Source: Duncaniella sp. (GTDB lineage: Bacteria > Bacteroidota > Bacteroidia > Bacteroidales > Muribaculaceae). Taken from it: DNA of 64,000 nt. This document shows, piece by piece, positions 3,982-57,767 of the stretch (position 1 is the stretch's first letter; each line of letters starts with the position of its first letter). A program made the translations under genes and the position numbers. The notes under the pieces were generated by a model. The model was not told where the DNA came from. It made no database searches and saw only the letters and a program-made list of their open reading frames with translations. The stretch lies in the NCBI GenBank assembly GCA_029056055.1, contig JAIDCC010000095.1, forward strand, positions 3,747-67,746, written 5' to 3'.

Positions 3982-4413
3982 ATGAAGAACTCAACGACAC
4001 ATATCGAAAGCCCCGCCGTGGGATGTATGCTCGGCAAAGCATATCAGACGCTCCTCAGCCGTCTGGCCGACGCTCTGGCCCAAGCCGGGCTCGACATCAC
4101 GACCACGGAATACCTCGTGCTCCGCGCGCTCTATTCGGCCGACGGTCTGCAACAATGCGAAATCGCCGGACTGACCGGCAAAGATAAGGCTTCGATATGC
4201 CGCTGCGTGGCCGGCCTTGCAAAGAAGGGACTCGTGACGACAGAGACGGTCAGTCACAAATGCCTGCGGGTCTACCTTTCCGACGAGGCCAAGGCCATCG
4301 AGGCAAGAGTGCTCGAGGTGGCCGCCGCACGCCACAACGCGCTGCTCGCCATCTCTTCGCCGCGAGAGGTTGAGGTCTTCGCCAACGTACTTGAAAAAAT
4401 CATAAGTAAGTGA
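3982..4413 (+). CDS. MarR-family transcriptional regulator
   Basis: 143 aa from the ATG at 3982 (the track ORF starts at a TTG at 3943). It shows a winged-helix pattern: TEYLVLRALY...QCEIAGLTGKDKASICRCVAGLAKKGLV. Its TGA stop lies inside the terminal repeat of the interspersed element. Confidence 0.8.
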   Translation: MKNSTTHIESPAVGCMLGKAYQTLLSRLADALAQAGLDITTTEYLVLRALYSADGLQQCEIAGLTGKDKASICRCVAGLAKKGLVTTETVSHKCLRVYLSDEAKAIEARVLEVAAARHNALLAISSPREVEVFANVLEKIISK

Positions 4414-4587
4414 GAAAAATAAATGAACAGATAAAAGGAAGTTATTTTTGAGATGATTTGAGATTTGAGTGAAGAAGCATAGCGAGCTATGCGCCTGAAC
4501 GAAAGGCTCAAAGCATCCAAAAAGAACGAGTTTTACTGTTCAAGAATTTTTTCTTACATATATCGTTTTATTTTTAGAACTTACTTA
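4403..4587. repeat. ~185-bp nested-palindromic interspersed repeat (MITE-like), copy 1
   Basis: Termini TAAGTAAGTGAGAAAAATAAA ... TTTATTTTTAGAACTTACTTA form an 18/21 inverted repeat. The central hairpin is GCATAG-CGAG-CTATGC. The element is near-identical to copies at 24539, 37265, 42933 and 54525. Confidence 0.9.
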
Positions 4588-4620
4588 CTCAATCATAATT
4601 TAATAGAAAGGAAAAACACA

Positions 4621-5340: not shown

Positions 5341-5402
5341 AACACTAAATCATGAGGTTTCCGCGCTGCCGCGGAGACCTCTTTCATCTGATACTCTCTC
5401 TC

Positions 5403-7133: not shown

Positions 7134-9527
7134 TCAGCGGATTACGATTTTGGCTGTCGTGGCGGGGGTGCGCACTATGTAGAGTCCCGCGGGGAGGGTC
7201 GGAAGCTCTGCGGCGAGGCCTGTGGCAAGAAGTCTGCCGTCGGGGGTGAAGACCTCCACGCGGCCATCGGCAACGATTCTTCCGTCGGCAACGCTTATTG
7301 CTTCGGCCTCCGTCTCGCCCTGCACCGCGTCGATGGCCGAAATCTGTCCGTCGCCCATGATGATGTAATGCTTCCAAGCCTCGTCGGCCTGGTAGAATTT
7401 CACATAGGAGGGCATCGTATGCACCTTCACGCGCGGCGGGAATGTGCAGAGGTCGGGATTGTTGTCGTCCCACACGATGGCCGGGGGCTCGATGGTCAGC
7501 GCCCACACGTCGGTGAGCTGTTCGCAGCGGGCGAACGCGCCTGCGTCTATGGTTTTGAGCGTGGCGGGCAGACGCAGTTTCTCAAACCGTGTTCCGGCAA
7601 ATGCCTCCCGTCCTACGTAGGCGAGTTTGTCGCCCCACGCGAAAGTGTCGAGATTCGTGCCCGAGAAGGCCTCATCCTCTATCGTGGTGAGGTTGGGCCA
7701 CGTGATGTCAAGCTTTTCAAGCGGCGCGTTCTTGAACGCTCGCTCTCTGATGGTGCTCACCTTACATTCGAAAGGTGTGCCGTCGGCACTCGCGATGCTC
7801 TTCAGTGACGAGTCTTCAAATGTTCCTTCATGAAGATAATCACAATTTCGTTTATCGGTGGTCAGGAAGCTGGGTTCCGTCTCAATTCCGGTTATTCCGG
7901 ATTTCTTCAAAGCCTCTGCGCCACAGATGTAGAGTTTGCCTGCAATATGCTCCAACAGAGGTGTGTCTCTCAACCCGCCTTCAAATACGTACGTCCAAAC
8001 CTTGTTTTTGATTTCCTTAAGGCCGCTGTTTTTGAAAGCATCAGCGTAGACATATATTAGGTTGGCGCTGATGCTCTCTATGGCCGTTTCCTCGAACGCT
8101 CCTTCTTCAAACAATACACTCGCATAGCCACCCGGCACGGTGGTGATGGTTTTGACTGCTTCTTTACCCGGGAAACTGTTTTTGGTAAACATCACGCTCA
8201 TGTAGGAATCGGGCGCGTCGTAGAAGAACGTGAGACCGCCGCCGGTATCGAAATTCAATGGCCCGCGCGCGATTTCTATCGTGGTGTCGTCGGCGTTGCG
8301 GGGTGTGAAACCCAAAATTTCGTAGCCGCTGAAGTCCTCTGATTCAGACTTGACTTTATCCTTGCTATAGATTACTCCCCTCCATTCCCACGAGCCGTCG
8401 GCGCGACGCGACGGGAGCGGCTGAATGTCGTAGTTGGCCCAGATTTTCGTGCCGTTGGCGTCGGTGAAATTCTTGTAGACTCCGACGGCATACGAGGGCA
8501 CGTAGATGCTCACTCCGGCTGGAAACGAGCAACGCGAGGGATTGGCGGCGTCCCACACGATGGCCGGTGGTTCGGGGTTGGAGATGTAGACGGCTGTAAG
8601 CCTGTCGCACCCCGCAAATGCGCCCTCGCCTATCGACTCGATGACCGGGGGCAGAAAGACTTCCTCCAGACGAGTACCGCGGAAGGCTCTCGCGCCTATG
8701 GTGCTAAGATTCGCCGACCATAATAATTCTTCAAGCGGCGTGCCGTCGAAGGCCTCTTCTTCAACGGTGACAGCCGACGAAAAGGGCAGCGTGGTGACCT
8801 TCGAATTCTTAAAACTGCGCTTCCCGAAATGAGTTATCTCCATAGTATTGCTCAAATTATACTCATAGGAAAAGGAGGTAAAATTTGAATTCTCAAACGC
8901 TCCCTCGGGAATAGTCTTCGAGATTAATTCGCTGATCCATACTCTCGTGACGGAAGACCCTTTGAATGCGTTTACACCCAATTCACTCACAGTGCCGAGA
9001 TATACACTCTCAAGGTTAGTGGTCCCCTCGGCAAAACTCTTGCCGACAGGCATTGTGACCCCGTTGGCCGTCCCTAAGTGAATTTTGCTGACATGACTAT
9101 TCATAAAAACACTGTCAGGAGTCTCAACATTCCGCCCATATGGTTCCCAATAAAAATTAAAGCATCCAAGTGACGATGCATTATAGAACGCTTTCGAGCC
9201 AAACCACCCTTTTGTATAGGCATTACTCGGATTAACGTCGGTGATAATATCATTATTGGCGAAAATCTCACGCGGCAGATACTTCTTCATTTCAGTGCCG
9301 GGATACTCTCCCCAGTTGTCGGGAGAATACTCTCGCAACACATAGGGTGTGATATACAAACTACGGTTTGGTATATCCGCCGTCAAAGTAGTTCCGACAA
9401 CAGTCCAATAATAAGAACCCACCTCATAAATCACATGGCGATATTCAATCGTAGAGGCACACCCGCTCATGGCCGCAACAAGCAGAAATATCCCGACGAT
9501 TATTCTGCGAAAGTGAATTGTTTTCAT
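7134..9527 (-). CDS. BspA-like leucine-rich-repeat surface protein with lipoprotein signal and T9SS C-terminal sorting domain
   Basis: 797 aa with a lipobox (LLVAAMSGCAS) and repeated blocks of the form xAFxxCxxLTxV. The C-terminus (VEVFTPDGRLLATG...LPAGLYIVRTPATTAKIVIR) looks like a Por secretion tail. Confidence 0.75.
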   Translation of the reverse strand: MKTIHFRRIIVGIFLLVAAMSGCASTIEYRHVIYEVGSYYWTVVGTTLTADIPNRSLYITPYVLREYSPDNWGEYPGTEMKKYLPREIFANNDIITDVNPSNAYTKGWFGSKAFYNASSLGCFNFYWEPYGRNVETPDSVFMNSHVSKIHLGTANGVTMPVGKSFAEGTTNLESVYLGTVSELGVNAFKGSSVTRVWISELISKTIPEGAFENSNFTSFSYEYNLSNTMEITHFGKRSFKNSKVTTLPFSSAVTVEEEAFDGTPLEELLWSANLSTIGARAFRGTRLEEVFLPPVIESIGEGAFAGCDRLTAVYISNPEPPAIVWDAANPSRCSFPAGVSIYVPSYAVGVYKNFTDANGTKIWANYDIQPLPSRRADGSWEWRGVIYSKDKVKSESEDFSGYEILGFTPRNADDTTIEIARGPLNFDTGGGLTFFYDAPDSYMSVMFTKNSFPGKEAVKTITTVPGGYASVLFEEGAFEETAIESISANLIYVYADAFKNSGLKEIKNKVWTYVFEGGLRDTPLLEHIAGKLYICGAEALKKSGITGIETEPSFLTTDKRNCDYLHEGTFEDSSLKSIASADGTPFECKVSTIRERAFKNAPLEKLDITWPNLTTIEDEAFSGTNLDTFAWGDKLAYVGREAFAGTRFEKLRLPATLKTIDAGAFARCEQLTDVWALTIEPPAIVWDDNNPDLCTFPPRVKVHTMPSYVKFYQADEAWKHYIIMGDGQISAIDAVQGETEAEAISVADGRIVADGRVEVFTPDGRLLATGLAAELPTLPAGLYIVRTPATTAKIVIR

Positions 9528-9530
9528 AAG

Positions 9531-11465
9531 CTAACCCAATTTAGTGAGAATCAAATCCCAATGGTTATTAAATGACAGGCCATATCGACCAGATTCCGAA
9601 ATCTTAACTTCAAATCGATTAATAAATGAAACCGATTTCAGTTCCTCTCCTACAAGGATACCACGTATAGAATCTGAACCGCCTGTAGTACTACTGTTTA
9701 CATCGGGGTTATAAAAACAATATCTGAGGATAATAAAACTACCTTCATCAATGTCCATTGTCATTTCTGACAACCAGTTTGTTAAAAGATGCAACCCTGA
9801 AAGATTAACGAACAGAGCTGGTTTACCCGTTTCAGCTTTTAGGCGAACTTGTCTTGGTAAAACAAGACAGGTGCTTTTATGCCTTTCTCCAGCTTTGTTT
9901 AGGTAAAGGGTATTATTAAGCGGCATTAAAGCTCCAAGCTCTATATGTGAATATGGATCTGTCGTAAGATAATATCCATCTGTGTAACGCACTTCTCTTT
10001 CCATATTGTACGGTTGAATAGAAGAGGTCATCACTTTCAAGTTCGATGAAGTGTATTGTCCATCGTAATTAAGTGGCAGAAAAGCCATTCTATCGAAATG
10101 GAAACGCGTAGCATCGTCCATGTCTGAGACCCAACCATTCACAATCACATGCGTACAATTTTCCGCCTTGAAATGGTTTGGTAAAAGACTTCCTTTAATA
10201 CTCATATTCACAGTGGCAACCTTCTTGAGATCCACCCATACAGCATCTGCATTATAGGGTTCCTTATCAAAAATCCCCGGAAGAGCTTCCATCATTCGAA
10301 GTGCTGTAAATTCTGAGGCATGTATTCCACGGAGATACAGCGGTATAGCACGGAGACCTTCGAAACCAATATTGGCAAATACATTTCCGTCTAATTTCCA
10401 TTCCATATCGGATGCATTCATTGAATGGTCTTCAATATAGATACCAAAACCACCCATGAGTCTGCCCCCGAGAATCAAATTCTCGTTGAAGTAACTTTTG
10501 ATACTACTATCGTCCGGATCATACAAATCAAAATAAAATCCATAATCAGCATCAATAATCTGAAACGAGAAACGAGTATATTGGACAGCTGCTAGATACT
10601 TTTTAGGATCTACAGATGCAGGGGGATTATAAATAACCGAAATACCTCTATAGAGATGTTGGAGATGACGAACAGTGATGTTGCTATTCTCGGTATAGCC
10701 TGAGAATTCAATACCTGTACCGAGGTATTGAAGTGTATAGCCCATAGTAGTAGAGCCCGCAGGCCGTTCTCCTCCTTTCAATCTATCAACATTAAGATTT
10801 ACAGACTGACATTTAATCTTGATAAGTGCGAAATTTGTATTTGAATCAGCAGATGAAATACAGCCAGGTGAGGTAAATCTTTGAAGAGAAAAGGTATGAA
10901 GCTCAACAGAACACTGTGTTTGCGTGGAGGTAGGCGAACTAAAAGAGAAACTATTATTAGGAAAGAAATATGCATTACATAATTCAATTGATGCCGTAAG
11001 ATGATATAATCGGTGCTGAAGAACTACTTCTGGGGCCGACCCATCATAATTGACGGAATCACCAACAGGTTCATCAGTTGAAGCAGCTGCGCACGCTAAT
11101 GCTTTATTAATATGAAAGTGATCCGAAGATGTCTTTGATTTTAAATCCGGATCATTAAACCACTCACTTTGTACTTGAGTGTTCCCACAGCCCCTGAAGT
11201 AGACATTCTTTCCCAAAATCCAAGTAGAGAGTGCTATAATTTGAGAACCTTGAAGATTCAGCACCACGTTGGTATTACACACAATGCGTCCTTCGCCTCG
11301 GAACTCAATAATACTATTCTCTGGAAAGGTGATCGATATGAATTTAGACGTCGGTACAGATTGAGTGTCAATTTCAATAATTGAGTCTATGATGTAACGA
11401 CCTTCGCTATCAGCTTCAATTACAGCATGATTCGTGAATTTCTTTTTTGTGAGTATTGTAGCCAT
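9531..11465 (-). CDS. Hypothetical 644-aa protein with no signal peptide and possible parallel beta-helix repeats; low-GC orphan
   Basis: A long uninterrupted ORF in an AT-rich tract. Its stop is 3 nt before the ATG of the LRR gene. I do not recognise the family; repetitive blocks like NITVRHL/GISVIY and GIYIEDHS hint at a beta-helix. Confidence 0.6.
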   Translation of the reverse strand: MATILTKKKFTNHAVIEADSEGRYIIDSIIEIDTQSVPTSKFISITFPENSIIEFRGEGRIVCNTNVVLNLQGSQIIALSTWILGKNVYFRGCGNTQVQSEWFNDPDLKSKTSSDHFHINKALACAAASTDEPVGDSVNYDGSAPEVVLQHRLYHLTASIELCNAYFFPNNSFSFSSPTSTQTQCSVELHTFSLQRFTSPGCISSADSNTNFALIKIKCQSVNLNVDRLKGGERPAGSTTMGYTLQYLGTGIEFSGYTENSNITVRHLQHLYRGISVIYNPPASVDPKKYLAAVQYTRFSFQIIDADYGFYFDLYDPDDSSIKSYFNENLILGGRLMGGFGIYIEDHSMNASDMEWKLDGNVFANIGFEGLRAIPLYLRGIHASEFTALRMMEALPGIFDKEPYNADAVWVDLKKVATVNMSIKGSLLPNHFKAENCTHVIVNGWVSDMDDATRFHFDRMAFLPLNYDGQYTSSNLKVMTSSIQPYNMEREVRYTDGYYLTTDPYSHIELGALMPLNNTLYLNKAGERHKSTCLVLPRQVRLKAETGKPALFVNLSGLHLLTNWLSEMTMDIDEGSFIILRYCFYNPDVNSSTTGGSDSIRGILVGEELKSVSFINRFEVKISESGRYGLSFNNHWDLILTKLG

Positions 11466-24526: not shown

Positions 24527-24538
24527 CTGTGTTCTGAA

Positions 24539-24720
24539 AAGTAAGTGAGAAAAATAAATGAACAGATAAAAGGAAGTTTTTTTGAGATGATTTGAGGTTT
24601 GAGTGAAGAAGCATAGCGAGCTATGCGACTGAACGAAAGGCTCAAAGCATCCAAAAAGAACGAGTTTTATTGTTCAAGAATTTTTTATCACATATATCGT
24701 TTTATTTTTTGAACTTACTT
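24539..24720. repeat. Interspersed nested-palindromic repeat, copy 2
   Basis: Same orientation as copy 1 and near-identical. It starts 12 nt upstream of the ATG (24526) of the minus-strand lipoprotein gene. Its flanking dinucleotides are AA/TT rather than TA/TA. Confidence 0.9.
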
Positions 24721-24841
24721 TTAATAGATTTGTGTGCAAATTTCCTTATAAAATTCGTAACGGCGCAAGGTTTGTCAATAAACGCCCGATAAGTGTCAAC
24801 CGAGGAAAGGCGTCAAATTTGGCGGCGTTTGAAAGATTGCG

Positions 24842-24853: not shown

Positions 24854-25882
24854 ATGAAATCTTTTGAAAATAAGACGAGTCTGATTTTAGACCTCTTCTT
24901 CTGCATAGTGCTTTGCCCGCTGCTCATGACGCTGGGGCCGATGCGCTACTGGTGGGGGCAGTATCCGGTGTTTGCCGCTATCGTGGCGGTCTACCTGTAT
25001 CTGTGCTATTTCGCCATCAAAAGAATTCGTCTGCCGCGGCTGATACTTTCGCGCTCCTACCTTCGCCTGGCGGGCGTGGTGGCGGGCTTCGTCGCGGCCA
25101 CCTACCTCATCACCCTCTACCCCCTGCCCGACGTAGATTTCGTGATACCTTCGATGAGCGAGTATCAGACGAGGGTGAGAAACTACAACATGGCTGTCTC
25201 GACATGGTTTATGGTCACCATCGTTCTGAGCTATTCGCTGACGGTGGTGTTCGTCGACGAACTCTATCACAAAATGCTGCTCCAGAGCATCGCCGAAAAC
25301 CAGCGTCAGAAAGCCGAGCTGGCCGCCTTCAAGGCTCAAATCAGTCCCCACTTTCTCTTCAACACGCTCAATTCGCTCTACAGTCTCGTCATCGGGACGT
25401 CGGAGAAAGCCGAGGATGCTTTCGTCAAATTCACCGAACTGCTCAAGTACACCTACGTCACCGTCGACAACGAGAGCGTGCCCCTGAGCGAAGAGATAGC
25501 CTACATCCGCAATTACATCGACCTGCAGATGATACGTCTCGACGACCACACGACAGTGGAATGGGACTGCCGAGTCGACGACCCCGACACGATGATTCCG
25601 CCCATGATTTTTCTCACTTTCGTAGAGAATGCCTTCAAATACGGCACGTCGACGAGCGTAGCCGCAAAGGTAGCAATCTCTCTCGAGCTGAAAGAAAAGG
25701 CGCTCACCTTCGCCACCTCAAACCGCATCCTGCGCCACCGCCGCGAATTTAACACCGACATGCCTGTGGGGCTTGTCAACTGCCGCAACCGTCTGGCCGG
25801 ACTCTTTCCCGGAAAACATTCGCTGACGAGCGAAGAGACCGACGGGACATACAGAGTGGAATTGAAAATCGACCTCAATTAA
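24854..25882 (+). CDS. LytS/YehU-type sensor histidine kinase
   Basis: Four or five N-terminal TM segments, then the His_kinase motif AQISPHFLFNTLNSLYSL and an ATPase N-box (FVENAFKYG). Confidence 0.85.
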   Translation: MKSFENKTSLILDLFFCIVLCPLLMTLGPMRYWWGQYPVFAAIVAVYLYLCYFAIKRIRLPRLILSRSYLRLAGVVAGFVAATYLITLYPLPDVDFVIPSMSEYQTRVRNYNMAVSTWFMVTIVLSYSLTVVFVDELYHKMLLQSIAENQRQKAELAAFKAQISPHFLFNTLNSLYSLVIGTSEKAEDAFVKFTELLKYTYVTVDNESVPLSEEIAYIRNYIDLQMIRLDDHTTVEWDCRVDDPDTMIPPMIFLTFVENAFKYGTSTSVAAKVAISLELKEKALTFATSNRILRHRREFNTDMPVGLVNCRNRLAGLFPGKHSLTSEETDGTYRVELKIDLN

Positions 25883-25912
25883 GTAAGTAAGCAAGTAAGC
25901 AAGTTCTATAAA
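25879..25912. repeat. Degenerate terminal-repeat remnant of the interspersed element
   Basis: TTAAGTAAGTAAGCAAGTAAGCAAGTTCTATAAA resembles the TAAGTAAGTTCTAAAAATAAA terminus. It supplies the TAA stop (25880-25882) of the kinase gene. Confidence 0.5.
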
Positions 25913-25922
25913 TCAACCGCCT

Positions 25923-35523: not shown

Positions 35524-36008
35524 GGCTTGCACTTCCCGACAGCCGGCTCGGTGAGGCTGACGCGAATGACAGTGGTGATGGCGAGACTGCGGGCGATGGC
35601 GGCGTCGAACCTATCCATGTGGGAGGGCAGAAATCGCTCGCAAAGAAGGCGGAGAGCCTTGATTTTCTCCTCATCGTCGGAGACGACTTCGGCCACGCCG
35701 AGAGCCACGGCCGAATGATAGTACTCGGTGAAATTGTCTTTTTCCTCCTCGAATTTCGGGGTGCAACGGCTGACGGCCGAGAGGCTCACAACGGGCGAAT
35801 GGCGCAGACAGTCGATTTTCTCGCCCTCGGCGGCGCAATGGAAATAGAACGTCCGCCGGTCGGAGCGCACGAGCGACAGAGGCAGCCCGTAGGGTGTTCC
35901 GTCGGGACGGGTGAAACTCACGGTGACGTAGGGAGCGCGGTCGAACACATCGAGAGCCCACTGCTCATCACGCTCCCGCTTTGATTTTCGCATTTGTTTC
36001 ATCTTCAC
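35520..36008 (-). CDS. Pyridoxamine 5'-phosphate oxidase-family protein (Nim-like split-barrel flavoprotein)
   Basis: 162 aa. MRKSKRERDEQWALDVFDRAPYVTVSF...YGLPLSLV...FYFHCAAEGEKIDCL follows the pattern of Pyridox_ox_2/NimA-type proteins. Confidence 0.65.
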   Translation of the reverse strand: MKMKQMRKSKRERDEQWALDVFDRAPYVTVSFTRPDGTPYGLPLSLVRSDRRTFYFHCAAEGEKIDCLRHSPVVSLSAVSRCTPKFEEEKDNFTEYYHSAVALGVAEVVSDDEEKIKALRLLCERFLPSHMDRFDAAIARSLAITTVIRVSLTEPAVGKCKP

Positions 36009-36019
36009 ATTTTTTCATG

Positions 36020-36027
36020 CAAAGTTA
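36020..36027 (-). promoter_or_regulatory. -7 box (TAACTTTG on minus strand) for the Nim-like gene
   Basis: Plus strand CAAAGTTA, 12 nt upstream of the first ATG (36008). Later in-frame ATGs at 36002 and 35993 may be the real start. Confidence 0.45.
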
Positions 36028-36486
36028 GTTACACTCCCCCAAACGGCCAAACATCCCCCGATGAAAAAATGAAAACAATGGATACCGTCGGTCTTGTTGA
36101 AGCCTGCGAAAAGCCCGCTGACCTTTGGAGACAGTGTTATTGGCAGACGTGAGGGCATAAAAAAAGCCCTTCCCTGCGGAATGGCGGATGCGAGTGGATG
36201 GATTGCGGGGGAGAGCGCGATTCAACTTGTTTTCAAATAACGCGCGGGCCGCGAATTAGATATGATAGATAAGTGCGGCCGAGCGACGATACCAATCGCC
36301 GAATTTGTGGATAAATCGTTTCATAATAATGTGGAATTTTGTTATTGTCAGGTGGATATGTTTTATCAACCTTTCGCTATTATAACGCCCTGCGATGAGA
36401 AAAGGTTCAAACACGGTCGGTATGCACATGTCTGTGAGTGGCAGTAATCATCCTAACCAAGACCTATACATACAAAACTGAACGAC

Positions 36487-36606
36487 CTACCCAGAAAGTT
36501 CAGAGAAAACTACCCGGAAAGTTCGGAGAAACTACCCGGAAAGTTCAGAGAAACTACCCGGAAAGGTTCAGAGAAACTACCCAGAAAACTACCCAGAGAA
36601 TTTCGG
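36487..36606. repeat. Tandem direct repeat, 22-23-bp unit CTACCCGGAAAGTTCAGAGAAA; 4 full + 2 partial units
   Basis: Units start at 36487, 36510, 36532 and 36554, with partial units at 36577 and 36589. The units differ by 1-2 substitutions or indels. Confidence 0.9.
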
Positions 36607-36760
36607 ATTTGGTAGCACTCTATTCTTATTTTGAAATTGTTGAACTTTCGGGGCGGCAGGGTGTTTTAATAGCAAAGGCGATACAGAATACAATAAGTAA
36701 CGTCTTTGAAAAGCACACCCTCACATTAACAACTCTTTATCATTTTCTATCTCACTCGCT

Positions 36761-37237
36761 ATGAAAAAATTACTCTCCCTTCTGCCCGCATTGCTTTTAG
36801 GACTCGCCGTGTCATCGTGTTCAGACCACGACGGAAAGGATATGCCTGACGTGAACATTTCGCTCGAATACTCAGGCGGCGCAACCGTGGATAACCACAT
36901 CGTTGTGGAGCAAGGGCAGACACTCTCTATAGACGGACTTTACGTGACCCCCGCCGAGGGCACCAAGAACGCCACGCTCGGACTTACGACTTACTATTGG
37001 GACTTCGTGCCGTTTGAAACGACAGCGATAGTGCCTTTCCAGGCTTCGATTTCAACGGAAGGCATGGAGCTTGGCCACCATGTGCTTCAAGTGCGCACAT
37101 CGATTTATCAGATAGACCGCGAAATGGCCTGGGGCGTATTCAGCTACGATGTCGAAGTGGTAGAACCCTCTTTGAGCAATCCCGAACCTGCAGGCGGGAC
37201 GCTCGTACCGGAGGCACGCATCACCTCGGCCGACTGA
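36761..37237 (+). CDS. Hypothetical small lipoprotein
   Basis: 158 aa with a lipobox (LLGLAVSSCSD). Family not recognised. Confidence 0.6.
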   Translation: MKKLLSLLPALLLGLAVSSCSDHDGKDMPDVNISLEYSGGATVDNHIVVEQGQTLSIDGLYVTPAEGTKNATLGLTTYYWDFVPFETTAIVPFQASISTEGMELGHHVLQVRTSIYQIDREMAWGVFSYDVEVVEPSLSNPEPAGGTLVPEARITSAD

Positions 37238-37264: not shown

Positions 37265-37449
37265 TAAGTAAGTTCAAAAAATAAAACGAAATATGTAAAG
37301 AAACAATCTTGAACAATAAAACTCGTTCTTTTTGGATGCTTCGGGCCTTTCGTTCAGGCGCATAGCTCGCTATGCTTCTTCACTCAAGACCCAAATCATC
37401 GCAAAAATAACTTCCTTTTATCTGTTCATTTATTTTTCTCACTTACTTA
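37265..37449. repeat. Interspersed nested-palindromic repeat, copy 3 (inverted orientation)
   Basis: Reverse complement of the copy 1 consensus. It lies between convergent genes, and its terminus contains the TAA stop (37443-37445, minus strand) of the ATPase-DUF4435 gene. Confidence 0.9.
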
Positions 37450-39200
37450 TCCAAAGAGAATGTACGGCGGATGGCGCGGCGTATAGCCGTGGCTGTCTCG
37501 CCGTTTTCTTTGAGTATGTCGAGGATTGCGCGGACGTAGGCGTCTTTGTCGTCGTGGCGCAGGCCACATTCGCGGGCAACGTGGCTTTCGGAAAGCATGG
37601 ATTTGCGATTGTAGACGCGGAGAATCGAGGCATAGTCGTCGGCAGCGGCGTAACCGTTGAATTCGGCGCAATAGCTCTCATACATGCCGCGGGGATTGAG
37701 CATTTCAGAGAGCGACTCAATGTGGTGTTCGAGGCCATCGATGTTGCTGAACCGTCCGTCGATGCGGTGTTCGACAAGGCGCTTCATGCGGTGGCGGGTA
37801 TGCTGGAGAGCCTGCGAGGCAATGTCGGCTGTGAAAAGTTTGACAATAGTGCGCTTGACTTTTGAAAAAGCAGTCTGCGGATTGCGACCGAAATGAGCGG
37901 CGACAGCCTTGATGACATCCTCGACCATGAAGATGTTTTCGATTTCGGCCACTTCGGGCACCATGATGTTTTTGTTACGCAGATAGCCCACTTCGCCATG
38001 GTCGCGGCGGTCGCGGTCGACGATGCCCCATGCGGCGAGGTTGTGGAACGAGCGGAGCGCATTGAAGGTGCGGGTAGACTCTATGACACGGTCGCACCCG
38101 CCGAGCGAACTGACTGTGAAATCGTCGAAAATCAGCGGATAGAGTTTGGCGTCGAGCGAATGGATGCCGTCGCCTTCGATGAAGAGCACAGGTTTGCGCG
38201 CTCCGAGAATGGCAAGGTAGGCTTCCTCGCTGAGACCTTCGGGGGTGGGCAGGAGTTCGTAGTCCCACTCCTGCGTGGCAGGGTTGCAGTCTTTCACCCA
38301 GATTGTGGCCGAGTTGCCGCGCGAAGTGGCAAACTGGAGGTCGTGGGTGGTGTAGACAAACGTGCAGTCGCGTCGCGCCAGCTCGATTTTGTCCCAGAGG
38401 GCGCGAGTGGACGACGGGTGGAGAAACATCGTGGGAGAGTCGACAAATATCACCGAATTGCGCGGAGCGAGCGCCGTGGCTCCTAGATAGTAGAGCACAG
38501 CCTTCTCGCCGTCAGACAGCTTGGCCGAATGGTAACGGTCGGGGCCGGAGAGCGCCTCCTCGTCGGCGGGACGGCTGAAAAGGAGCCGACCGTTTTCTAC
38601 GAGCACCCGATTGTCGGGGAAAATCTCGCGCCAGCGCCGCAGAGTGCGGTCAAGGTTGGTGGGGCGCTTCGAATCGGATTTCGAGGGGTCTTCGGAATAC
38701 TTGGTGTCGAGCAACCGGAGCATTTCCTCGCCGAGAAGGAGAGCCATCATGCGCTCAAACTCGCCTTTGAGGTCGGGGCGCAACAGAGGGAGGCGGCTGA
38801 CGGCGGCGTGGTAGGCCGCGTCGACCGACGTAGGGCTGGTGTCTTCCTTATCGGTGGCGTAGAGAGCTTTAAGCGCCGACACGCGAAAAGCGCGCAGTCC
38901 GAGCGACTCGGCCATGCGTCGGGCGAAACGAGTCTTACCGGCACCATTGGCACCGATAATCACAATCTGCCTATTGTGAGCGAGGTCAATTTTCAAAGGA
39001 GCCTCACCATCAAGGCGCGGAGGCAGGAGCAAGAGACTTTCTTTCGGCATGGCAGGCTTCGGTTTTGGCGATGAGTTGTGGACAGGGGTATCCTTGGCAG
39101 GCTCAACTACGGGAGCCGGGTCGACATGCCGACGACGGCGCGCATGGTGGCGCGACTCCGACTCGAACCGGTTGCGGGATACATGCTTAGACATTCCCAA
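37443..39200 (-). CDS. Fusion protein: ABC-type ATPase + DUF4435/Toprim-like domain (OLD/PARIS-like)
   Basis: Walker A IIGANGAGKTRF, signature-like LSDGEKAVL, Walker B VIFVDSPTMFLHP, H-loop YTTHD. This is followed by FIEGDGIHSLDAKLY...GIVDRDRRD...EIENIF (Toprim-type E...DxD). The start is uncertain (39200/39194 with an Arg-rich extension, or MPKESLL at 39050). Confidence 0.7.
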   Translation of the reverse strand: MGMSKHVSRNRFESESRHHARRRRHVDPAPVVEPAKDTPVHNSSPKPKPAMPKESLLLLPPRLDGEAPLKIDLAHNRQIVIIGANGAGKTRFARRMAESLGLRAFRVSALKALYATDKEDTSPTSVDAAYHAAVSRLPLLRPDLKGEFERMMALLLGEEMLRLLDTKYSEDPSKSDSKRPTNLDRTLRRWREIFPDNRVLVENGRLLFSRPADEEALSGPDRYHSAKLSDGEKAVLYYLGATALAPRNSVIFVDSPTMFLHPSSTRALWDKIELARRDCTFVYTTHDLQFATSRGNSATIWVKDCNPATQEWDYELLPTPEGLSEEAYLAILGARKPVLFIEGDGIHSLDAKLYPLIFDDFTVSSLGGCDRVIESTRTFNALRSFHNLAAWGIVDRDRRDHGEVGYLRNKNIMVPEVAEIENIFMVEDVIKAVAAHFGRNPQTAFSKVKRTIVKLFTADIASQALQHTRHRMKRLVEHRIDGRFSNIDGLEHHIESLSEMLNPRGMYESYCAEFNGYAAADDYASILRVYNRKSMLSESHVARECGLRHDDKDAYVRAILDILKENGETATAIRRAIRRTFSLDK

Positions 39201-42932: not shown

Positions 42933-43119
42933 TAAGTAAGTTCTAAAAACAAATCTATATATGTAAGGAAAAATTCTTGAACAGTAAATCTTGTTCTTTT
43001 TGGATGCTTTGAGACTTTCGTTCAGGCGCATAGGGAGACTATGCTTCTTAACTCAAATCTCAAAATCATCTCAAAAACAACTTTCTTTTATCCGTTCATT
43101 GATTTTTCTCACTTACTTA
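42933..43119. repeat. Interspersed nested-palindromic repeat, copy 4 (inverted orientation)
   Basis: The most diverged copy that still has the standard centre. Its central hairpin is GCATAG-GGAGA-CTATGC on the plus strand. It ends 8 nt before the GH2 ATG. Confidence 0.9.
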
Positions 43120-49117: not shown

Positions 49118-49129
49118 CCTTAAGTAAGT

Positions 49130-50597: not shown

Positions 50598-50747
50598 CCT
50601 AAGTCTAAGCTCCGCGAAATCTTTTCTTGAACATTCCTCCTCGCCCACGCAAAACTCCCCATCAGCCCATCCCGCCGCATACATTCCCCTGAATCCCCCA
50701 AATATCCAGCCGGACGCTTCTGCCTAAAAATGGTTGTCCACTGTCCC

Positions 50748-51025
50748 AATGCGGTTCAAATAGAGGATTGACCACATCCACGGAGGGTATGTTGCGCGCT
50801 CTAATCGTCTGATTAGCAGGTAGGGACGCGCCATGGCGCGTCCACGCAGACCCACGACTACGAATTACCCCCTCTCGCCGCGCCAACGTCTCTGCGGACG
50901 CGCCATGGCGCGTCCCTACCTGCTAATCAATCGGTTATCTTGATTCGGAGGCGCTGCTATCTTTTGGGGAAGTGCCGGTAGGAATTTCTGATGTCTTCCT
51001 CAATTCTTTATTTGAACCGCATTGT
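50748..51025. repeat. 16-bp perfect inverted repeat pair (CAATGCGGTTCAAATA / TATTTGAACCGCATTG) flanking a 246-bp segment
   Basis: Arms at 50748-50763 and 51010-51025. Each arm overlaps a 15-bp direct repeat TTGTCCACTGTCCCA (50735-50749, 51023-51037). Confidence 0.85.
50812..50929. repeat. Perfect 33-bp inverted repeat (GATTAGCAGGTAGGGACGCGCCATGGCGCGTCC) with a 52-nt spacer
   Basis: Arms at 50812-50844 and 50897-50929 are exact reverse complements. Each arm ends in the 20-bp perfect palindrome GGACGCGCCATGGCGCGTCC. Confidence 0.9.
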
Positions 51026-54524: not shown

Positions 54525-54710
54525 TAAGTAAGTGATAAAAATAAATGGACAAATAAGACGAAGTTATTTTTGAGATGATTTGTGCGCGGAACGAAGGAGT
54601 GTAGCCTGCTACACAACTGAGTGACAAACACAAAACATCCAAAAAGAACGAGTTTTATTGTTCAAGAATTTTTCCTTTACATATATCGTTTTATTTTTAG
54701 AACTTACTTA
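54525..54710. repeat. Interspersed nested-palindromic repeat, copy 5 (variant centre)
   Basis: The termini match copy 1. The central hairpin is GTGTAG-CCTG-CTACAC and the outer stem GATGATTTGTG / CACAAAACATC, both with compensatory changes relative to copies 1-4. Confidence 0.9.
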
Positions 54711-55954: not shown

Positions 55955-57154
55955 ATGAAACATAAAACTCTTCATGTAGAGAATTTTGGTCCCGTCAGCA
56001 ATGCCACGGTAGAACTCCGCTCCATCAACATGTTGATAGGCGAACAATCTGTAGGCAAAAGCACACTGGCAAAGCTGATAACAATTTTCACCGATTACCT
56101 GAGCCTGTGCAAATTGATAATGGGTGGAGAGAGCATGTGGCACAATCTGCTGAAAGAGTATAACCTCGAAATCTATAAGGACGATGATTATTTCATTGCC
56201 TTTGATATGAGTGAGGATGACGGACGTTTTCATATTGAGTTCCGTCACCACGAAATTTCATATTATCTGACTGTGGGCGGAGAAACCATCACCACACCAG
56301 AGAGTATAGTTGACCATATTCTCAACCTGAGACTGGATAAAATCTACCATGCCGAAGAGGTCAGGAAAGCCATGCAAGGAGGTGAGAACAAGGCGATACT
56401 TGAAGTGCTGACTAACTCCATCTACATTCCCGCCGAGCGAATCATCTATTCTGTCCTGACCAACCTTATGCCGGCCTTGGCGTTGGCCAATTCTACTATT
56501 CCCAAGATTTTGTTGCGGTTTATGGTAGAACTCGGGAATGCCAAGTCGGAATTTCCCGCCTTTCACATTCAGATGCTCGACGTCACATTCCGACATGAGG
56601 CATCTGAAGACTCCATCCTCATCGGCCCTGACGACAGAAATATTCCGATGAATGCTGCGTCGTCAGGCATCCAGTCGCTTGTCCCGCTGCTGTTCGTGCT
56701 CCATTACGCCATAACCAAGCGTGAGTATTCCTCATATGTCATCGAAGAACCTGAGTGTAATCTGTTTCCCACCAAGCAGGTTGAACTTCTTCAGTATATC
56801 CTTAAAGCCGTCAAGCACCCCACGCGCACGTTGACCATCACCACGCATAGTCCCTACTTGCTGTCGGCGATGAACAACATGCTGTTTGCAGGAATGCTGA
56901 TAGAAAAATACGGTGAAGGAATCAAGCCATTCGTTGACAAAGTGATGCCCGAAGCACACAGCCTCAAGGCATCCGATTGCTCGGTCTATTCGTTGGGCGA
57001 AGAGATTAACGGAGGCGACTATTGCCGTTCGCTTATGGATGCCTCAACCGGAATGATTGATTTCAATTCTTTGGATGAGGTTTCCGAATTGTTAGCCGGT
57101 GAGTTTGAATCTCTTCAGGAAGCCGCCGCCGACTACATGCGCGAGAACCGATGA
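55955..57154 (+). CDS. ABC-type (AAA_15/AAA_21-like) ATPase with no fused effector domain
   Basis: 399 aa. Walker A IGEQSVGKSTLAK, Q-loop-like YIPAER, signature-like NAASSGIQSL, Walker B SSYVIEEPECNLFP, H-loop TITTHSPYLL. Low GC. Confidence 0.8.
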   Translation: MKHKTLHVENFGPVSNATVELRSINMLIGEQSVGKSTLAKLITIFTDYLSLCKLIMGGESMWHNLLKEYNLEIYKDDDYFIAFDMSEDDGRFHIEFRHHEISYYLTVGGETITTPESIVDHILNLRLDKIYHAEEVRKAMQGGENKAILEVLTNSIYIPAERIIYSVLTNLMPALALANSTIPKILLRFMVELGNAKSEFPAFHIQMLDVTFRHEASEDSILIGPDDRNIPMNAASSGIQSLVPLLFVLHYAITKREYSSYVIEEPECNLFPTKQVELLQYILKAVKHPTRTLTITTHSPYLLSAMNNMLFAGMLIEKYGEGIKPFVDKVMPEAHSLKASDCSVYSLGEEINGGDYCRSLMDASTGMIDFNSLDEVSELLAGEFESLQEAAADYMRENR

Positions 57155-57167
57155 TTTCAAGCAAATT

Positions 57168-57767
57168 ATGATGAATTTCAATCCTATTAAACGGCTCAGG
57201 CTTAAAGCTGCCTATGAGGATGCGAAAGCGTTTGCCGACGTAGTCCGCGACGAGGATTTTCTCGTGGAATTGTTTGAATGGTCTGAACGGGGAACTATTT
57301 TCATCGTTGACGACGCTGAGGCAGGCTTTTCCCGATTTGTCACAGATACAAACGGGTTGGGATTCGACAAGGCCTTAAAGGTGGTCAACCGAGACCACAA
57401 AGACATGTTCCTTTGGCATATCGACGGTCTCATCTATAAGAAAGACAGCAAATGCGACTGCGCACTGCTGACGGATGAGAGCATTCGTTTTATCGAATTC
57501 AAGTCGAATGCCGCCAATAAGACGCGTGAGGCGATTATCGAGAATTACGATAAAGCCAAAAATCAACTGAAGCTCACCTTTGACGACGTCAACGAAAGGT
57601 GTCGGAAGGTCGGCATAGATTTGAAAACCAGTGCCCGACCGAGAGCATACGCAGTCTTCAACCGCACGGTGCCTTCTCTCAATGCCTATCAGAAGAAACT
57701 TGCTGCGCAGTTTCTGTTAGAGACAGACGGCGTTTCGCTTGAATTTAAGAACGAAACCATAATCTGA
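57168..57767 (+). CDS. Hypothetical 199-aa protein with a PD-(D/E)xK-like nuclease motif
   Basis: Starts MMNFNPIKR, 13 nt after the ATPase stop (the track ORF starts at a GTG at 57099 inside the ATPase gene). The candidate core is FLWHIDGLIYKKDSKCDCALLTDESIRFIEFKSN (D ... D ... ExK). Family not recognised. Confidence 0.6.
   Translation: MMNFNPIKRLRLKAAYEDAKAFADVVRDEDFLVELFEWSERGTIFIVDDAEAGFSRFVTDTNGLGFDKALKVVNRDHKDMFLWHIDGLIYKKDSKCDCALLTDESIRFIEFKSNAANKTREAIIENYDKAKNQLKLTFDDVNERCRKVGIDLKTSARPRAYAVFNRTVPSLNAYQKKLAAQFLLETDGVSLEFKNETII

Follow-up and report, generated by a model that had tools for sequence, protein, structure and literature searches.

A palindromic repeat family of Muribaculaceae that probably represents a TA-duplicating, non-autonomous DNA transposon

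The DNA analysed here is a 64-kb stretch (the window) of an uncultured Muribaculaceae genome, with ~58% G+C overall and a few A+T-rich islands. Five A+T-rich repeats of ~185 bp (copies c1 to c5, Table 1) were confirmed in it, each at the position given in the original prediction, and they could be aligned over their full length with a mean column identity of 83%. Similarity ends abruptly at TAAGTA...TACTTA, and the flanks of the five copies are mutually unrelated. The genes that adjoin them are ordinary chromosomal genes (MarR, DsbA-like, LytS-type kinase, LytTR, two GH2, ackA, ddh and DUF4435/AAA_21), and promoter boxes of the Bacteroidota type (TAnnTTTG) are visible upstream of window genes. 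The diaminopimelate dehydrogenase encoded beside c5 is 93% identical to Duncaniella proteins.

Table 1. Repeat copies, their parts and remnants, insertion sites that differ between strains, and copies of the distant subfamily B. Positions are those of the window unless a contig is named; the last two columns list the sequences in which a site is occupied or unoccupied.
Feature	Position	Strand	Location or sequence	Filled	Empty
Copy c1	4403-4587	+	Flanking TA on each side included; spacer between MarR-family gene and DsbA-like gene	window, L141, L142, L146	L138, L139, L140, L143, L144, L145
c1 left terminal inverted repeat	4403-4424	+	TA + AGTAAGTGAGAAAAATAAAT; stops in 3/3 frames within 11 nt		
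c1 central stem-loop	4457-4512	+	Tandem G·A internal loops and apical hairpin GCATAG/CTATGC		
c1 right terminal inverted repeat	4566-4587	+	TTTATTTTTAGAACTTACT + TA		
Strain-specific insertion site	~5389 (5386-5393)		CATCTGATACTC	L138, L143 (188-bp copy of c5 subtype)	window
Copy c2	24538-24721	+	Spacer between divergent genes for a 288-aa protein and a LytS-type histidine kinase		
Degenerate terminus remnant	25879-25915		TTAAGTAAGTAAGCAAGTAAGCAAGTTCTATAAATC; between histidine kinase and LytTR regulator genes		
Strain-specific insertion site	~36005 (36000-36012)		GTTTCATCTTCACATTT; start codon of PNPOx-like gene	L147, L154	window
Copy c3	37265-37449	-	Spacer between convergent genes; in stop codon of DUF4435/AAA_21 gene	window, L147, L148, L150, L155	L149, L151, L152
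Copy c4	42933-43119	-	Spacer between two divergent GH2 glycosidase genes	window and four other strains examined (internal deletions there, 170-181 bp)	none
Short terminus-like remnant	49118-49129		TTAAGTAAGT; directly 5' of ATG start codon		
Copy c5	54525-54710	+	Spacer between ackA and diaminopimelate dehydrogenase gene (ddh)	eight contigs	L160, L161, L162
Subfamily B copy	L002 1036-1219				
Subfamily B copy	L024 2002-2185				
Subfamily B copy (interrupted)	L018 2334-2701				

Both ends of the element are inverted repeats that start with AGTA(A/G)(G/T)T, and the whole element is an imperfect palindrome. The termini agree at 18 of 21 positions, as originally reported, and the GATGATTTGAG/CTCAAAGCATC stem and the central GCATAG/CTATGC hairpin were likewise found, the whole unit folding as a single hairpin. 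The tandem G·A loops of the c1 central stem place GA at 4467-4468 and 4471-4472 opposite GA at 4501-4502 and 4497-4498. The most divergent subtype in the window is c5 (83% identical to c1), and where the two differ in the apical stem the differences are compensatory changes. Four of the copies have TA on both sides, as had been claimed, and c2 has AA on the left (24538-24539) and TT on the right (24720-24721). This AA/TT relationship is inverted, not direct, and the same flanks are present in a strain contig (L027); the two changes are mutually complementary, as would be seen if the hairpin's outermost pair had been preserved. The 21-nt terminus has eight matches in the window at three or fewer mismatches, compared with none expected from shuffles, and AAGTAAGT has 12 matches against 0.56 expected. 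The two additional AAGTAAGT matches are the terminus-like remnants near 25879 and 49118, whose earlier identification they bear out, and the stop codon of the histidine kinase gene lies inside the first of these.

Some other features of the window were recorded. A low-GC island at 9531-11465 (39-47% against ~58% G+C) encodes a 644-aa protein without a Pfam match, and its neighbour is the gene of a BspA-type leucine-rich-repeat protein (7134-9527). At 36464-36610, about six 22-23-bp units (CTACCCGGAAAGTTCAGAGAAA) form a tandem array that lies upstream of, or overlaps, the ORF at 36438-36764, and the spacer around it (36002-36633) varies in length between conspecific strains. The low-GC spacer beside the ribosomal protein L31 gene contains a nested inverted repeat (50747-51024), with 50-nt arms (50802-50851/50888-50937) that are 88% complementary and G+C-rich at the centre, enclosed by outer arms of 25 nt (50747-50771/51000-51024); gene calls in this spacer vary by strain (122-136-aa ORFs). 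Two regions carry candidate defence-type genes: 37443-39200, which encodes a DUF4435 + AAA_21 protein whose stop has been replaced by c3, and the low-GC region 55955-57767, near one of the repeat copies, where the gene of a 399-aa AAA_15/AAA_21 ATPase precedes that of a 198-aa protein.

One genome per species was scanned with an exact pattern, which located 26 loci in MAGs of six Muribaculaceae species (Sangeribacter spp., 'Muribaculaceae bacterium', and two rodent-gut MAGs labelled Bacteroides/Bacteroidales), and the left-terminus pattern retrieved 47 metagenome loci. By profile searches, ~100 copies were found in 73 loci outside the window, 48 of them distinct and full length. The element was found in Muribaculaceae assemblies only. 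Its length is conserved at 183-187 bp, and it forms species-specific subfamilies with 70-97% identity to the window copies, the terminal pairs 7/188 and 8/187 co-varying between subfamilies. A more distant subfamily, B (TAAGT(A/T)GCTCG...GTGAGCTACTTA), matches subfamily A in length and hairpin plan; the two co-occur in Sangeribacter genomes, where each has inserted into the other. No flank is common to the window copies and those of other genomes or metagenomes. Eight contigs end inside a copy (L008, L011, L021, L023, L025, L027 (inside c2), L146 and L154), a pattern typical of multi-copy repeats, at which assemblies break. The element lacks coding capacity: stops occur in all frames at both ends, and overlapping ORFs simply run in from flanking genes. 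As read from the sequences of the window and Sangeribacter subfamilies, three-frame stops lie within 14 nt at both termini.

The family had not been recognised in the original prediction, and the wider searches agree with this. Rfam gave no matches at gathering score across the whole window and chance-level matches only in E-value mode, there was no match in PLSDB plasmids, INPHARED phages or IMG/VR viral contigs, and a literature search turned up no publication on this repeat family.

Several loci show unusual arrangements of the element. Copies and fragments are clustered, with as many as five or six of them in 3.9 kb (L094 1-3900; other clusters are in L103/L130 and L107). The arrangement of one copy within the right terminus of another recurs in L097 (1-360) and L123 (2396-2753) with different outer flanks, and could represent a hot spot or a dimer moving as a unit. 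There is also a solo 25-bp right terminus directly upstream of a gene start (L022 184-208), a 47-bp mini-copy with two ends (L010 3436-3481) and a solo 30-bp left terminus between two genes (L095 2298-2330), derivatives that suggest decay by internal deletion.

Copies occur in all kinds of spacer, and many abut or enter the 3' ends of genes. Because the termini contain stops in three frames, a reading frame interrupted by the element ends at once. Copy c1 inserted four codons before the stop of the MarR-family gene, and its left terminus now supplies the stop codon (TGA at 4411-4413), giving a protein that ends in ...IISK* compared with ...IITQS*. Copy c3 lies in the TA of the DUF4435 gene stop, with a replacement stop (TAA, 37443-37445, minus strand) and a protein end of ...FSLDK* compared with ...FSLE*. 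The element thus alters gene ends, having replaced the stops of a MarR-family and a DUF4435/AAA gene, and it also sits in the promoter regions of divergent glycosidase genes.

Contigs of conspecific strains, ~97% identical to the window, were retrieved by exact-protein look-ups; with long proteins, these look-ups matched only the window's own genome. The contigs of ENA assembly ERZ14208457 are 100% identical to the window. Five of the seven sites in the 64-kb region are polymorphic within one species, and three of the five window copies are lacking in some strains (Table 1). The empty c1 allele reads ATCATTACTC in all six contigs that lack this copy, and the empty c3 allele reads CATTATTCC in the three that lack c3. 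A comparison of sister strains for empty sites was the test of mobility put forward in the original prediction, and the polymorphism at five of seven sites answers it positively. Rather than being restricted to a few loci without polymorphism, the copies are widespread and differ in presence between strains. As insertions differ between ~97%-identical strains, and copies have inserted into other copies, the element is, or recently was, active. Copy c5 is also absent from Duncaniella relatives, where the ackA-ddh spacer measures 97-152 nt compared with 318 nt in the window; this spacer was dropped as an empty site, being too diverged to align.

These observations bear on whether the repeat could be an intergenic sequence that is maintained by the host, as a bidirectional terminator or protein-binding site, and spread by recombination. 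Its intergenic location, often directly at gene 3' ends, and its very stable hairpin would fit such a role. However, its presence varies between near-identical strains, it has exact ends, it duplicates TA and it has inserted into its own copies, all of which argue for transposition; the assembly breaks at the repeat indicate many dispersed copies, and the hairpin is without a conserved U-tract after it. We consider maintenance by the host a very improbable explanation.

Two strain contigs differ from the window in other ways near c1. L139 and L140, both of which lack c1, have 20 bp (AATCATAATTTAATAGACTA) duplicated in tandem at ~1440-1500 (window ~4590-4615), upstream of the dsbA-like gene. 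In L143, the extra repeat copy is directly followed by additional sequence (2457-2600) that neither the window nor L138 has, apparently a larger insertion or rearrangement.

The clearest evidence for target-site duplication comes from nested insertions, since there the uninterrupted sequence is known from paralogues. In L103, a subfamily A element lies within a B copy, and the intact B sequence GAA-TA-GAT has become GAA-TA[core]TA-GAT. In L024, where B has inserted into A, the sequence with the insertion removed and one TA kept aligns without gaps (185/185) to four intact A copies. L097 and L123 each have an A copy in the right terminus of another A, at AATTTT-TA-ACAACTACTTA, with TA on both sides. 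TA is therefore exactly duplicated in four nested insertions; a fifth, in L018, fits by length, with exactly 2 nt present at the site in four intact B copies. Across the family, 43 of the 48 full copies start with TAAG and end with CTTA, i.e., have TA...TA flanks.

The strain-level junctions are less tidy than this model, as three of the five empty sites are off by one base. At the c5 and L138 sites a 2-bp duplication fits by length, with substitutions adjoining the junction, and at c1 (TTA), c3 (TAT) and the L147 site the empty allele exceeds by one base the length expected from a clean TA duplication. At the L147 site and at c5 (L160), the empty allele lacks TA at the junction. The duplication of TA claimed in the original prediction is thus established by the nested cases, with additional small changes at some junctions, namely the three strain-level sites that are off by one base and the AA/TT flanks of c2.

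Other interpretations of the junctions were considered. The empty alleles of c1 and c3 could be excision products in which the two TA copies have lost one base, a reading that does not fit c5 or the L147 site. Targets of 3 bp (TNA) or TTAA, or a 3-bp duplication outside TAAGT...ACTTA, were rejected because the flanks fit none of them.

The one-base discrepancy at three strain-level sites, which gain the element length minus 3 and not minus 2, would also be compatible with movement as single-stranded DNA by an HUH/Y1 enzyme, in the manner of IS200/IS605-type PATEs or REP/RAYT systems, where the hairpin is read on one strand and there is no true target duplication. The strand-specific conservation of the hairpin (see below) points the same way, and on the minus strand the c1 site is consistent with a clean insertion of 182 nt 3' of GAGTAA. 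Such a 182-nt insertion does not fit c5, however, and at c3 and the L147 site it fits only if substitutions are assumed; left-flank tetranucleotides show no consensus that would indicate a one-sided target. The exact TA duplication in the four nested insertions and the co-variation of the long terminal inverted repeats are equally at odds with it, and no Y1 transposase was seen. Such a mode of movement is highly unlikely.

Taken together, the family has the properties of a MITE: small size, no coding capacity, inverted termini, target duplication, dispersed copies and insertion polymorphism. With a probability of about 0.8, we interpret the repeats as a Muribaculaceae-specific, non-autonomous DNA transposon of ~181 bp plus the duplicated TA, presumably moved in trans by an enzyme of the IS630/Tc1-mariner DDE type. 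The MITE interpretation, already offered in the original prediction, is strengthened by the strain polymorphism at five sites and by the nested insertions with TA duplication. A 2-bp TA duplication combined with terminal inverted repeats is the signature of IS630/Tc1-mariner transposases, and movement in trans follows from the lack of coding capacity. The presumed DDE transposase would recognise the co-evolving terminal repeats, and possibly an inner conserved block. The element inserts at TA dinucleotides and duplicates the TA, and most copies lie in intergenic DNA or interrupt the last codons of a gene.

The assignment to the IS630 type is an inference, since no partner was found. The window had been described as free of transposases, and none was present among the window genes scanned or the Pfam hits of called genes; neither the window nor the fetched loci contained a transposase, or any longer element that shared the termini. 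A metagenome scan with the left terminus for a parent IS yielded nothing but MITEs, truncated ends and, in L095 and L111, two solo or chance termini that were rejected as IS ends. In viral contigs, a 17-base terminus pattern gave 55 single matches and no paired termini, as by chance. Clustering of ORFs across the loci recovered syntenic orthologues only, and no multi-copy transposase.

Each strand of the element folds as one long hairpin (z ~ -7.5). An alignment of 40 diverse copies (A4) was folded with RNAalifold, giving a consensus of a single hairpin with 56 pairs, of which 29 have changes on both sides, compared with 13.9 +/- 1.6 in column shuffles and at most 13 in slid controls. The proportion of paired cells is 96.9%, compared with 87.6% in column shuffles and 36-51% in slid controls, and none of 500 shuffles reached the observed value of either measure. 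Covariation extends beyond the termini through the inner block and the central stem, an example being the change from TTTTTG/CAAAAA to TTTCGG/CCGAAA, and asymmetries between the arms are conserved, such as a segment of ~25 unpaired nt in the right arm. Simple re-palindromisation is therefore an inadequate explanation.

The conservation is also strand-specific. RNA of the plus strand is more stable than that of the minus strand in 43 of the 48 copies, by ~9 kcal/mol on average, and with DNA parameters the plus and minus strands of c1 give -34.1 and -29.7 kcal/mol. Within pairs, G·T occupies 89 cells at 25 positions and A·C only 10 cells at 10 positions. The three 2x2 internal loops of the central stem are GA/GA in 30-35 of the 40 copies, and the Watson-Crick steps between them co-vary. 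Double-strand cut-and-paste movement does not require the G·T excess, the GA loops or the strand-biased folding. Compensatory changes along the whole length, together with the better folding of one strand, suggest that the hairpin is under selection, which could act on the chemistry of transposition or on the behaviour of the element in transcripts.

These features raise the question of whether the element is first and foremost a structured RNA, acting in cis at mRNA 3' ends or on mRNA stability or forming an sRNA family, its hairpin then being selected as RNA and its mobility being secondary. The covariation along the hairpin is strong, and the better folding of the plus strand, the excess of G·T over A·C and the three tandem GA/GA loops all count in favour of such a module. 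Between co-directional genes, the plus strand is sense in 19 cases and not sense in eight, but with duplicate loci removed the ratio is ~17:8 and not significant. Copies occur in both orientations, including between divergent genes, no promoter or U-tract is conserved across subfamilies, and there is no match in Rfam; moreover, TA duplication and strain polymorphism show that the element spreads as a transposon does. A primary role in RNA is therefore unlikely.

Two candidate signals within the element were rejected. In the window copies the left arm contains TATTTTTG, a match to the Bacteroidota -7 box (TAnnTTTG) that was discarded as an internal promoter because other subfamilies replace the box (TGTTTTTG; TTTCGG with compensating CCGAAA; TTATTTTGA) with pairing kept. 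A T-run 3' of the inner hairpin in the window copies, which would suggest an intrinsic terminator, is not conserved in other subfamilies.

A narrower proposal can be reconciled with the transposon interpretation. The helix of one strand, with its three tandem sheared G·A pairs and co-varying steps, may have been selected as a gene-end RNA module or as a single-strand transposition intermediate, which would make the element more than a selfish palindrome. We advance this tentatively and regard it as doubtful. If the first variant were true, the element would affect transcript stability or processing in Bacteroidota, for which signals of this kind are poorly known; if the second were, a folded strand would be needed for the transposition of a TA-duplicating element. 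With its strand-specific and unusually well conserved hairpin, the element lends itself to asking whether selection on MITE structure serves transposition or acts through transcripts.

As dominant gut bacteria of rodents, Muribaculaceae are still mostly uncultured, and their mobile elements have barely been described. An abundant, active MITE explains assembly breaks in Muribaculaceae MAGs, and because its insertions differ between ~97%-identical strains, they can serve as strain-level markers.

Among known intergenic repeats, REP sequences (and BIMEs) are similar in being abundant hairpins with strand-specific mismatches. REPs measure ~35 bp, lack both terminal inverted repeats and a TA duplication, and are linked to a RAYT gene. 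None of these traits was seen in the Muribaculaceae element, which has terminal inverted repeats and a duplication and so is not REP/RAYT-like or IS200/IS605-like. The MITEs of Porphyromonas gingivalis (e.g., BrickBuilt) likewise belong to the order Bacteroidales; BrickBuilt appears to be a different family without sequence relationship.

Parallels in how the element works are found in other phyla. RUP of Streptococcus pneumoniae and other MITEs linked to IS630-family elements are non-autonomous, target TA and are believed to depend on an IS630-family transposase acting in trans. RUP has a candidate parent whose termini are similar (IS630-Spn1), whereas none was found for the Muribaculaceae element. 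ERIC/IRU of Enterobacteria and YPAL of Yersinia are imperfect palindromes of 127-170 bp that lie at TA, in either orientation, in transcribed intergenic regions. They share with the present family a whole-length imperfect palindrome inserted at TA, but the sequences are unrelated and the hosts here are Muribaculaceae, where clear strain-level polymorphism and nested insertions indicate recent activity. Correia elements (NEMIS) of Neisseria are MITEs of 100-160 bp with terminal inverted repeats and TA duplication, present in many intergenic copies; their transcripts form a hairpin, and they encode no transposase. The Muribaculaceae element is likewise a TA-duplicating, hairpin-forming intergenic MITE without its own transposase, but it occurs in another phylum, has no sequence similarity to Correia elements, is longer (~185 bp) and palindromic throughout, and no IHF site or outward promoter was identified in it. 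It is an undescribed family of a well-known type of element, one that resembles Correia/NEMIS, ERIC/YPAL and RUP in how it works and shares no common sequence with them.
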